A DNA stretch of 25,125 nucleotides from the NCBI GenBank assembly GCA_002366685.1, contig DFBP01000113.1, positions 1 to 25,125 on the forward strand, given 5' to 3'. Made by a program: the position numbers and the translations under genes. Origin of the DNA: Rhodobacterales bacterium UBA3077. GTDB lineage: Bacteria; Pseudomonadota; Alphaproteobacteria; Rhodobacterales; Rhodobacteraceae. This document shows, piece after piece, positions 644 through 17,779 of this stretch; the first letter of the stretch is position 1; every line of letters starts with the position of its first letter. Under the pieces are notes generated by a model. That model did no database searches. It had not been told where the DNA came from and was given only the letters and a program-made list of their open reading frames with translations.

Positions 644-683
644 CACTGCCCGGCAGTTGATTGCACAGCAATCAATGAGAGGG
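644..683 (-). repeat. 40-bp hairpin mini-element, copy A
   Basis: CCCTCTCA-TTGATTGC-TGT-GCAATCAA-CTGCCGGGCAGTG: a perfect 8-bp stem plus a terminal palindrome. It interrupts orfA between codons GCT and GAG. Confidence 0.92.
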
Positions 684-15184: not shown

Positions 15185-15250
15185 ATGAGCAATCTGGGCC
15201 TCGAAATGATCGATCGCACTGTTCAATTGACCCAGGAGTGGATCAACGAG
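15185..15250 (+). pseudogene. 5' fragment of a DUF2267-like gene truncated by the IS3
   Basis: AAGGAG RBS, then MSNLGLEMIDRTVQLTQEWINE, which resembles DUF2267 N-termini as recalled. The frame runs into the IS end. Confidence 0.6.
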
Positions 15251-15305
15251 GTGCCCCTAGAATTGTAGACACCTTTTTACCTAAAAATAAGGCAATGAGG
15301 CCACC

Positions 15306-15618
15306 ATGGCAATGCAAGATTCAGTGAGCTTTTCAAATGGGATGCGGTGCATCAAATTGTGGTGCGGGGATATCCGGTTGCGGAGGTTTCGAAGCGATTA
15401 GGTGTCAGCTCTCACTCGTTATACGCTTGGGTGAAGAAGTTTTCCAAAGCACCTGACATTGACACCGGAGACGAACACGCAACCGAGAACAGGCGGTTAA
15501 GGCGGGCGCTGGCACGTGTCACGGAGGAGCGTGATATCCGAAAAAAGGCCACCGTATGTCGACCGGCAGGTGAATGGCACATTCACCGAGAGGGAACTTC
15601 GCCAGAGATGCCAAATGA
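15306..15618 (+). pseudogene. IS3 OrfA pseudogene
   Basis: DAVHQIVVRGYPVAEVSKRLGVSSHSLYAWVKKF...ERDIRKKATV|YFARDAK*. There is an apparent 1-nt deletion after the ATG and a 38-bp insert near the end. Confidence 0.85.
15558..15595 (-). repeat. 38-bp hairpin mini-element, copy B (divergent)
   Basis: Minus: (T)CCCTCTC-GGTGAATG-TGC-CATTCACC-TGCCGGTCGAC, a perfect 8-bp stem. Removal restores ACC GTA TAC TTC GCC AGA GAT GCC AAA TGA. The boundary is ambiguous by 1 nt. Confidence 0.8.
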
Positions 15619-15632
15619 AGTATGCGTTTATT

Positions 15633-15672
15633 CACTGCCCGGCAGGGTATTGCGCAGCAATGCAATAGAGGA
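15633..15672 (-). repeat. 40-bp hairpin mini-element, copy C
   Basis: Minus: TCCTCTAT-TGCATTGC-TGC-GCAATACC-CTGCCGGGCAGTG. Removal restores TTT ATT GAA GAG CAT. Confidence 0.9.
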
Positions 15673-15858
15673 GAAGAGCATCGCCCTCTGTTTTCGGTCC
15701 GTGCGATGTGCCGTTGTTTGCGCGCTCACCCCAGTGGTTTCTATGCGTGGCTGAAGAACCCTCACAGCAAAAGGGCCGCCAAAGATATGCGTCAGACGAA
15801 GTTGATTAAAGAGGCTTGGGAAGAAAGCGGCAAGGTTTACGGCTACCGCAAGCTGCAT

Positions 15859-15898
15859 CCCTCTATTTGATCGCTGCGCAATCAGCTGCCGGGCAGTG
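15859..15898 (+). repeat. 40-bp hairpin mini-element, copy D
   Basis: CCCTCTAT-TTGATCGC-TGC-GCAATCAG-CTGCCGGGCAGTG. Removal restores AAG CTG CAT GAT GAT CTC. Confidence 0.92.
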
Positions 15899-16346
15899 GA
15901 TGATCTCTGTGATCAAGGTGAGACCTACTGCCCTAAACGTGTGGGGCGTCTGGTTCGGTTGGGCGGTATCAAAGCCCAGATCGGCTATAAACGCCGCCCT
16001 GGCAAGTATGGCGGCAAACTATCGGTTGTGGTGGATAACACGTAGAATCGCCGCTTTGATGTCGATGCACCGGACAGGTTCTGTGTGACTGACATCACCT
16101 ATATCAAAACCTATGAAGGGTTTTTGTCTCTAGCGGTCGTTATTGATCTATATTCCCGTCGTGTGGTCGGTTGGGCGACGCACAGCCGTCAATACACCGA
16201 CCTTGCTCTGCAAGCAATACTGATGGCGGTGTGGCGACGCAAGCCATTGAATCAAGTGTTGATCCATTCCGACCAAGGCACACAATTCACCAGCATGGAA
16301 TGGGCAACATTTCTAAAGCATCACAATCTTGAACATAGCATGAGCC

Positions 16347-16387
16347 CCCTTTCGGCAGATTGCTCCGCAATCGCCTGCCGGGCAATG
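16347..16387 (+). repeat. 41-bp hairpin mini-element, copy E
   Basis: CCCTTTC-GGCAGATTGC-TCC-GCAATCGC-CTGCCGGGCAATG. Removal restores ATG AGC CGA CGA GGG AAT TGC (MSRRGNC). Confidence 0.9.
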
Positions 16388-16612
16388 GACGAGGGAATTG
16401 CCATGATAATGCCGTTGCCGAGAGCGTTTTTAATCTGTTGAAACGGGAACACATCAGACGGCGACTATATAAAACCAGAGAAGACGCAAGGCGTGATATC
16501 TTCGATTACATCAACGGCTTCTATAACCCGCGCCGGAGACACTCAACATTAGGCTGGAAAAGCCCCTTGGCTTTCGAAAGGATTGCCGCTTAAATGAGAT
16601 CTTGGGGCCGCA

Positions 16613-17779
16613 CTAAAGCGTGACAGGTCCAAACCCCCTTGCATGGCGGGCTTCCCTGAATTTCGGACCAGTATCTACGCTTAAATGGCCAAGGTCCTGC
16701 AAAAGATGCAGAGCTTCCAACTTGTCTTCAATTTCACTCTTTTTACCCGCCAAAGCTTCCGCTAAATGGGCCGATAGAGCTTCTGTTGCTGTATTGGCAA
16801 TCGAAACACTTAGCGATGCCATAGAGTCTTGCGCTTTTGGGGGTTTGTCAGCAGTAAGGATAAGACGGGAAAAGTAGAGTGATTTGACAGGAAAGTCCGT
16901 TTCGCCCTTAACTTCATTCTTTGCCACGTTCCAGTTAAATGACTGCGAAAACTTTAAACCGTTCTCGCTATGGCAGCTTGTATTTTTCTTCGCATTCTCA
17001 AAATCAAAGGAACGGTGAGCGAAGTGTTTTCTAACAATATCAGCATGGCAAAAATCATGTTCTGCTTCGCGATACCAGCCCGCGAGATAATAGGTCGTCT
17101 CTACCCCCTCAATAGGAGGTTTAGGGTCTTTAAAGCCGAAAACACTTTGACAATTCTGGTAATACGCCGAGAAGGTCGGCTCGCCATAGCCCAGTGCCGT
17201 AAGCGAATAGTCGGTGACCTGCTTTAGGTGTTCATGAGGCTTGTCTAACCAGTCCCAATGTGCCTCATCCAGACAGCGGCCCATATATCTAAAAGGGGGC
17301 TCTCTAGGGCCAGCATTCTCATACCCGATCGGATAGCACACCGCGCCTGAAGTTGCGCCTTCTCCAGGAGGGTAGACATAGTCACTTTCAACCAAATACG
17401 AGGTGCCAACTGTATCATCACCATCGTATCGGGTGATGAGCCACATGTTTGGAACCGCAGGAAACGCAAAACCTTTGGTTTTTTCGGAGTGAGCTTCCAA
17501 GTCTTTGTCTTTTTTGGATCGAACATCCAAGCTCTGCGTCAGGGCATCTGGTAAAGCCCAGTGAAGGTGTACGCCCGGCGAAAGCTCTCCTGTATCGTCA
17601 AAGGGGGCGCTAACCAGCTCTTCACTGACAAATGCTGTTCCGCCATTTACATCGCGACTTCTATCAAAATATGGCAATTTGGAAAAATCGGCCATTGCGG
17701 GGCGGGACTTAAGCGTTGAATCAACCCTTAGCGCGTCCAACCGAACGGGTACCATTAGATGATTATCGGCTTCGCTCAT
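16613..17779 (-). pseudogene. Hypothetical protein, probably C-terminally truncated by the IS
   Basis: 388-aa ORF with motifs GVHLHWALPDAL, FPAVPNMWLITR and YLVESDY. Its last codons (GPVTL*) are encoded by the IS right end. Confidence 0.65.

Follow-up and report, generated by a model that had tools for sequence, protein, structure and literature searches.

Fold-defined elements of 37–41 nt lying mostly in transposase genes of Rhodobacteraceae

The window considered here (the whole stretch of 25,125 nt that was analysed) carries five copies of a mini-element whose central hairpins pair well and yet differ in sequence, and it raises the question of what is conserved among these copies, how they came to lie where they do and what kind of enzyme moved them. 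Searches with nhmmer and with a covariance model built from the copies detected the five in the window and eight across the whole genome (2.6 Mb in 308 contigs, 74% complete, 53.7% G+C). The orientation of every copy is given for the element strand reading CACTG...GAGAGGG.

Copy A (644–683, plus strand, 40 nt, 58.2 bits with the covariance model) lies antisense in orfA of an otherwise intact IS3-family (IS407-like) element, IS_A, which occupies positions 1–1000 on the minus strand, continues past the window start and comprises, by its translations, orfA, an A7G frameshift site and the start of orfB. Copy A is the only visible damage in IS_A. The other four copies lie in a second IS3-family element, IS_B (15254–16631, plus strand; right end TGGACCTGTCAC at 16620–16631). 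Copy B (15557–15594, plus strand, 38 nt, sense) is found about 10 nt 3' of the A6G frameshift site and has a degenerate head; the initial annotation had placed it at 15558–15595, a 1-nt ambiguity of the boundary. Copy C (15633–15672, plus strand, 40 nt, sense, 52 bits) occupies a recurrent site at orfB codon 6/7, copy D (15859–15898, minus strand, 40 nt, 53.5 bits) lies antisense in orfB, and copy E (16347–16387, minus strand; model match 16348–16387, 48.5 bits) lies antisense in the conserved MSRRGNC motif of orfB. IS_B is a decayed copy because, besides the four inserts, it has a TAG nonsense codon at 16043–16045 (T*N; Leu in relatives) and a 1-nt deletion at about 15305, just past the orfA start, relative to its homologue on contig C211.

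Beyond the window the genome has three more copies: one on contig C74 between two IS fragments, one on C211 in a third IS3 copy and one on C244 in the region of a plasmid-type pRiA4-ORF3-like gene. The C74 copy (copy F) lies at the joint of two different IS fragments, and on the same contig a run of N, either a gap or withheld bases, directly adjoins an IS3 orfA fragment (L001:1596–1646).

Pairing and covariation in the mini-element

On the minus strand the hairpin of copy A reads TTGATTGC-TGT-GCAATCAA and that of copy B reads GGTGAATG-TGC-CATTCACC. Both have perfect 8-bp stems with 3-nt loops (9 bp counting the closing G.T or G-C), in the positions and with the pairing first described, and inspection and folding bear out the accompanying statement that the stem persists in copies C–E despite a wobble, mismatch or bulge. 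In copy E the hairpin is lengthened by GGCAG/CTGCC pairing, with a bulge. The eight copies of the genome have eight different stems and every stem pairs: 92% of their cells are paired as against 77% after shuffling, with 0 of 500 shuffles as high and slid controls at 26–59%. In 72 distinct copies from relatives, counting both this hairpin (P2) and the helix P1 defined below, 91.2% of cells are paired versus 74.7% in shuffles (0 of 500 equal it), double-sided changes amount to 118 cells versus 41 in shuffles, and slid controls reach 31–45%.

Two model searches over fetched loci of relatives yielded 201 copies, 184 of them distinct. They follow a common plan, 37–41 nt in length, of a 12-nt head C-R-Y-T-G-(C/A)-C-C-G-G-C-A, a 9-bp stem that opens with G, closes with C or T and is otherwise almost free in sequence, a loop of 2–4 nt and a tail GAGAGGG. 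At least 15 clearly different stem sequences, all paired, are represented. The bases of the head, internal loop and tail are nearly invariant across copies, and 156 distinct sequences occur among 163 copies. We computed a structure-agnostic mutual-information matrix over all position pairs of these 156 distinct copies, anchored on the conserved head and tail only. Hairpin P2 appears in it as a clean anti-diagonal with values from 0.3 to 1.27. Two isolated peaks connect position 6 with the last base (C:G 110, A:T 14, G:C 4, T:A 1) and position 8 with the third-last base (C:G 139, T:A 11). These peaks define a 3-bp long-range helix, P1, formed by head positions 6–8 and the last three bases; within it lie a 4x4 internal loop of almost constant sequence, GGCA facing GAGA, and P2. 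The minimum-energy fold computed for copy A with RNAfold consists of exactly P1, the 4x4 loop and P2, and copies B, D and E take essentially the same fold, with P1 cut to 2 bp in B and a bulge in P2 in E; that of copy C instead pairs the head palindrome next to a 7-bp hairpin. Wobbles across P2 favour one strand: they comprise 108 G.T and 30 A.C, an excess of G.T to which one position contributes most, and these totals include 58 G.T and 0 A.C at the closing pair of P2.

Compensatory covariation in the hairpin is strong across some 180 distinct copies, and the pair counts and the mutual information together lend strong support to the original proposal that the mini-element is conserved as a structure and not as a sequence. 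The possibility that copy B came from an unrelated repeat family was also examined. Copy B matches the covariance model with 41.6 bits (E 2.6e-10), stems nearly identical to its GGTGAATG/CATTCACC recur in L041, L027 and L001, including copies of other genomes, and it is a true member of the family. At two places with stems similar to that of copy B (L027:1213–1250 and L041:2034–2071) the local sequence is similar too, GGCCA..C / ..CTTYGC.CAG, in two unrelated IS3 subgroups and in opposite orientation to the gene; this shared local sequence may reflect an extended target preference, or chance.

A second palindrome, earlier noted as retained in four copies, is a conserved feature of the sequence. 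Read here as CTGCC-C-GGCAG, it is found whole in copies A, C and D and with imperfections in E, and is lacking in B. As a helix it was rejected for want of covariation: pair 6:10 is mismatched in 48 of the 156 copies with a mutual information of 0.04, and positions 6 and 8 covary with the 3' end instead. The head also resembles the stem of type I-F CRISPR repeats, a likeness that we judged to be chance because CTGCC-C-GGCAG cannot form that hairpin and lacks covariation. Rfam gave no relevant match up to an E value of 10 over window positions 15200–16700.

Two further features of the ends were observed. The tail GAGAGGG (for example at window positions 676–683) is Shine-Dalgarno-like and in about 40% of copies is preceded by T, which yields TGA; judging from these motifs, a stop-and-restart effect of the tail on sense insertions is conceivable. 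A head variant T-R-T-T-A, which begins with T and has A as its fifth base, occurs for example at L008:732–772, L027:921–959 and L120:207–245. It is linked to the other end of the element, since the tail is followed by C in 5 of 5 copies with this head but in only 2 of 145 with the standard head.

Insertion junctions, host genes and spread

Removal of copies B–E at their exact coordinates restores a continuous OrfA and OrfB of IS_B, the frame at copy E being restored only when 41 nt are taken out, and removal of copy A restores orfA of IS_A. Homologues of IS_A with 65–75% identity have no insert at this position and reveal copy A as an insertion of exactly 40 nt with no duplication. In the 160 copies with distinct flanks no target duplication was found, flanking repeats of 1–6 nt occurring only at chance level. 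The bases upstream of the insertion are C at −1 (76%), T at −2 (61%) and A at −3 (48%). Insertion prefers the 3' side of (C)ATC, a preference that is clear but degenerate, and both healing and empty sites assign the upstream (C/G)(A/G)TC to the host sequence. The element has no evident complementarity to the (C)ATC target, and the flanks share no mutual information above the null with P2, so the variable hairpin is not a target guide. About 29% of element lengths are divisible by three, as by chance, and the reading frame is therefore usually broken. Restoration of long ORFs did not discriminate as a test of excision (median lengths 189 aa healed, 189 aa unhealed and 233 aa in the control) because GC-rich DNA has long spurious frames; homology and Pfam matches were used instead.

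Most copies lie in transposase genes, and these belong to eight or more IS families. In all, 85 of the 201 copies lie in or adjoin homologues of the two IS3-type transposases, and the remaining flanks with a Pfam match are almost all transposases, of the IS3, IS5, IS6, IS21, IS66, IS91, IS256 and IS630 types. Among two complete genomes that carry the element, G031 (39 copies) and G018 (23 copies), the identifiable hosts in G018 are IS5, IS3, IS256, IS110, IS630-like and IS21 elements; in G031 one single copy lies in an IS5 element and another is intergenic, upstream of an MscS gene. An inverted pair of copies 3.2 kb apart in G018 was considered as a REPtron-like unit and rejected, since what lies between the two is an ordinary IS21. 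Insertion favours neither orientation in the host gene: of the independent events, 18 are sense and 23 antisense. Insertion sites in IS3 elements are scattered over orfA and orfB and some are recurrent; the orfB codon 6/7 site carries copies of two different stem types in IS homologues from at least six genomes. As many as five to seven diverse copies can crowd into about 1.1 kb of a single IS, as seen in genomes of the same genus (L229:1750–2872, L231:941–2013, L230:1201–2144 and L232:897–2052).

An IS3-family element of 1386 bp in G031 (L034:1783–3168, that is G031:C1:76782–78167) has four copies inside it and is present there and at five other places, six times in all, at 99% identity, which shows that the mini-elements also multiply by riding in ISs. 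This amplification accounts for most of the copies in G031. The mini-elements in this IS break its frames, and the broken IS was presumably amplified in trans. Seawater metagenome DNA contigs that are 98–100% identical to the G031 IS are precisely without elements 1, 3 and 4 and keep element 2, the absence of element 1 being a skip of 2197–2234. Filled and empty alleles of a nearly identical IS thus exist in nature, from which it follows that the element is mobile as DNA, or was so until recently. They are direct evidence of recent insertion or excision as DNA which, the alleles being from different strains, gives neither direction nor present-day activity. Contigs from RNA libraries, which came from diverged IS variants, had no signs of splicing and do not weigh either way on a role as RNA. 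Excision, empty sites, the flank count over 160 copies and the metagenome alleles all support mobility as DNA without target duplication.

The taxonomic range is narrow. The covariance model matches every one of the 17 genomes of the genus and 29 of the 36 in the family, at 1–60 matches per genome. Among about 149 other families of the class, each sampled by one genome, only 2 have a match at E<=1e-6. A pattern scan of named genomes found the element mainly in Rhodobacteraceae/Paracoccaceae of the marine Roseobacter group, with sporadic strong matches in Hyphomicrobiales and in one marine gammaproteobacterium.

The mobilising enzyme and competing explanations

The initial annotation had placed a hairpin-recognising enzyme or an RNA structure behind the mobility and had named HUH transposases (IS200/IS605 TnpA, RAYT) as a model. 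An enzyme that recognises the hairpin, of another or a hitherto undescribed kind, is still the best guess; co-occurrence lends no support to the HUH proposal. PF01797 (Y1 HUH: RAYT, IS200 TnpA) was not found in the window's genome (G000) or in G031, G018, G002 and G004, and neither IS91-type Y2 nor TnpB was found in the complete genomes G031 and G018. Of five high-copy genomes, G005 alone has Y2_Tnp, G031 and G018 alone have IS110, and no genome has TnpB; we therefore rejected Y1 HUH, IS91 Y2, IS110 DEDD and TnpB as candidates, since none of them co-occurs with the element in all five. Such absence is reliable only for the two complete genomes because metagenome-assembled genomes often lose multicopy genes. 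A scan for the head motif revealed no longer autonomous element with the same head; the extra matches were rejected as an autonomous parent, those in G018 being chance matches in GC-rich genes and the one in G031 a degenerate copy. The mobilising enzyme is probably not a canonical Y1 HUH transposase.

The explanation that we favour, with a probability of roughly 60%, is that the copies are non-autonomous mobile DNA elements of 37–41 nt, defined by their fold, that insert precisely, hitchhike in ISs and are mobilised in trans by a structure-specific single-strand enzyme. The fold consists of a 5-nt 5' tail (C-R-Y-T-G), P1 (CCC at positions 6–8 with the GGG end), the 4x4 loop and P2. The element enters preferentially just 3' of (C)ATC, mostly in transposase genes and without gain or loss of target, and then spreads inside its host ISs. 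In keeping with the strand bias of the wobbles, the putative enzyme would act in trans on one single strand, that reading CACTG...GAGAGGG, and the 3'-terminal GGG, paired with the CCC upstream of the hairpin, would present the right-end cleavage site, much as guide and cleavage site pair at the right end of IS608-type elements. The points of anatomy concerned are a strand-specific fold, invariant unpaired bases, a 3' end that resembles a cleavage site and is anchored through a short helix on the 5' side of the hairpin's foot, a short preferred target at the 5' side and the lack of duplication, and by analogy we infer that the element may work like IS200/IS605 ends and other single-strand nuclease substrates.

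The fold might instead do its work in RNA, whether as a binding motif for a protein, as a processing site, as a stop-plus-Shine-Dalgarno cassette or as a small ribozyme, with DNA mobility being secondary. Variable paired helices around invariant internal-loop bases are characteristic of functional RNA motifs, only one strand tolerates G.U-type wobbles, and the tail is Shine-Dalgarno-like with its frequent (about 40%) TGA. Against these features stand the occurrence of copies facing both ways in their host genes (18 sense and 23 antisense, counted as independent events), the lack of any Rfam match even at E 10, a proportion of lengths in multiples of three (about 29%) that is at chance and does not preserve the frame, RNA-library contigs of diverged IS variants that bear no sign of splicing, and hosts that are dead or silenced transposase genes. 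We regard a primary function in RNA as unlikely, and the RNA structure that had been offered as an alternative basis of mobility is weakened, both by the two orientations and by the existence of filled and empty alleles as DNA. A slightly lower likelihood attaches to the suggestion that the copies are immobile relics, distributed by hitchhiking and by hot-spot or orthologous inheritance, with pairing arising by chance or by biased palindrome repair. IS amplification does explain most G031 copies, several sites are common to homologous ISs and nearly all sequences differ (156 distinct among 163); but three insertions distinguish IS alleles that are 98–100% identical, copy A is the sole lesion of an otherwise intact IS, and the conservation of head, loop and tail far exceeds what neutral decay would permit, at the same time as the stems have changed by compensating substitutions.

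It is improbable, in our estimation, that the family is an ordinary REP/REPIN or an IS200/IS605-derived palindrome moved by a RAYT or TnpA Y1 HUH transposase. The small hairpin, the lack of target duplication, the preferred short 5' target and the pairing of the 3' end with bases upstream of the hairpin would all suit such an origin, whereas PF01797 was not found in the window's genome or in the two complete carriers, the copies have no GTAG or CGTC tag, form no inverted dimers and are not extragenic, they number 1–60 per genome and not hundreds, and their architecture is unlike all families in PMC3733652. Least probable of all these, we think, is that a host system uses the element to disable transposons, its insertion being aimed at IS DNA as a defence. 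The very strong concentration of copies in the transposase genes of unrelated ISs, the repeated diverse insertions into one IS and the narrow taxonomic range, as for a host-encoded function, could be read in this way. Tolerance and hitchhiking can explain much of that concentration, though, a gene associated with the element was not found, one copy at least is intergenic, and an IS with four copies has still multiplied to six.

To return to a mobile element moved in trans, a bolder form of this explanation, which we put forward tentatively and consider doubtful, would make it a minimal single-hairpin transposon in which a 3-bp internal guide helix offers the 3' end for cleavage, moved by a hitherto undescribed, structure-specific single-stranded-DNA enzyme of Rhodobacteraceae that prefers IS DNA, for example as single-stranded or replicating transposition intermediates. 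If true, it would be a hyperparasite of transposons, or even a host tool for disabling them. Very small hairpin repeats are common in bacteria, and to our knowledge the mover of most of them, the CGTC class of Alphaproteobacteria included, is not known. The present family is an unusually clean case, with two covarying helices, exact junctions, filled and empty alleles and a narrow host range; its carriers include cultured strains with complete genomes, which makes a search for the enzyme experimentally tractable. The bias for transposase genes of unrelated IS families leads to the testable idea that transposons have inactivating parasites of their own.

Comparison with known systems

Literature searches by topic and by motif string returned no description of this family. 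The nearest kinds on record are the GTAG- and CGTC-tagged REPs. The latter are alphaproteobacterial repeats without an identified dedicated transposase, built from an 8–9-bp stem starting with A-T pairs, a 4–5-nt loop and a CCA tail (Di Nocera et al. 2013, PMC3733652). Like REPs and REPINs, which are hairpin repeats of 20–40 nt whose stems vary with compensation and some of whose copies are intragenic (PMC3733652), the mini-element keeps pairing while changing sequence. In contrast to the CGTC-tagged class its stem starts with G, its loop has 2–4 nt and its tail is GAGAGGG and not CCA. It differs from REPs and REPINs generally in having a conserved 12-nt head in place of an internal GTAG or CGTC, a hairpin enclosed by a long-range 3-bp helix, and copies that are single and not inverted dimers, low in number and mainly inside transposase genes; RAYT (PF01797), the partner in REP/REPIN-RAYT systems, was not found in its complete carriers.

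With the ends of IS200/IS605 elements (IS608 and ISDra2; PMC6006769 and established knowledge) the mini-element shares a strand-specific hairpin, insertion 3' of a short target that is not duplicated, and a 3' end, putatively the cleavage site, that is paired to bases on the 5' side of the hairpin's foot. It differs from them in being one hairpin in 40 nt without distinct left and right subterminal hairpins, in a target preference that is clear but degenerate (−1 C in 76%), theirs being a specific tetra- or pentanucleotide, and in that Y1 transposase and TnpB were not found in its carriers. On the points tested, distinct end hairpins and a Y1 TnpA, membership of IS200/IS605 fails. MITEs mobilised by DDE transposases differ as well, since the head and tail of the mini-element are not inverted repeats of each other and there is no target-site duplication.

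Other very short inserts offer looser parallels. Elhai and co-workers (2008, cited in PMC3116915) reportedly described small dispersed repeats (SDRs) of 21–27 nt from Nostoc and other cyanobacteria. SDRs are shorter than 50 nt, hairpin-forming, seemingly mobile and nested in repeats and ISs, and we know of no enzyme for them. They appear to differ from the mini-element in sequence and come from another phylum. The GC clusters and 'byp' elements of yeast mitochondria and the Rickettsia palindromic elements are likewise short palindromic mobile inserts that can enter coding sequence. Those inserts are tolerated in frame or bypassed by the ribosome, whereas most copies of the mini-element break the frame of their hosts, which are dispensable transposase genes.
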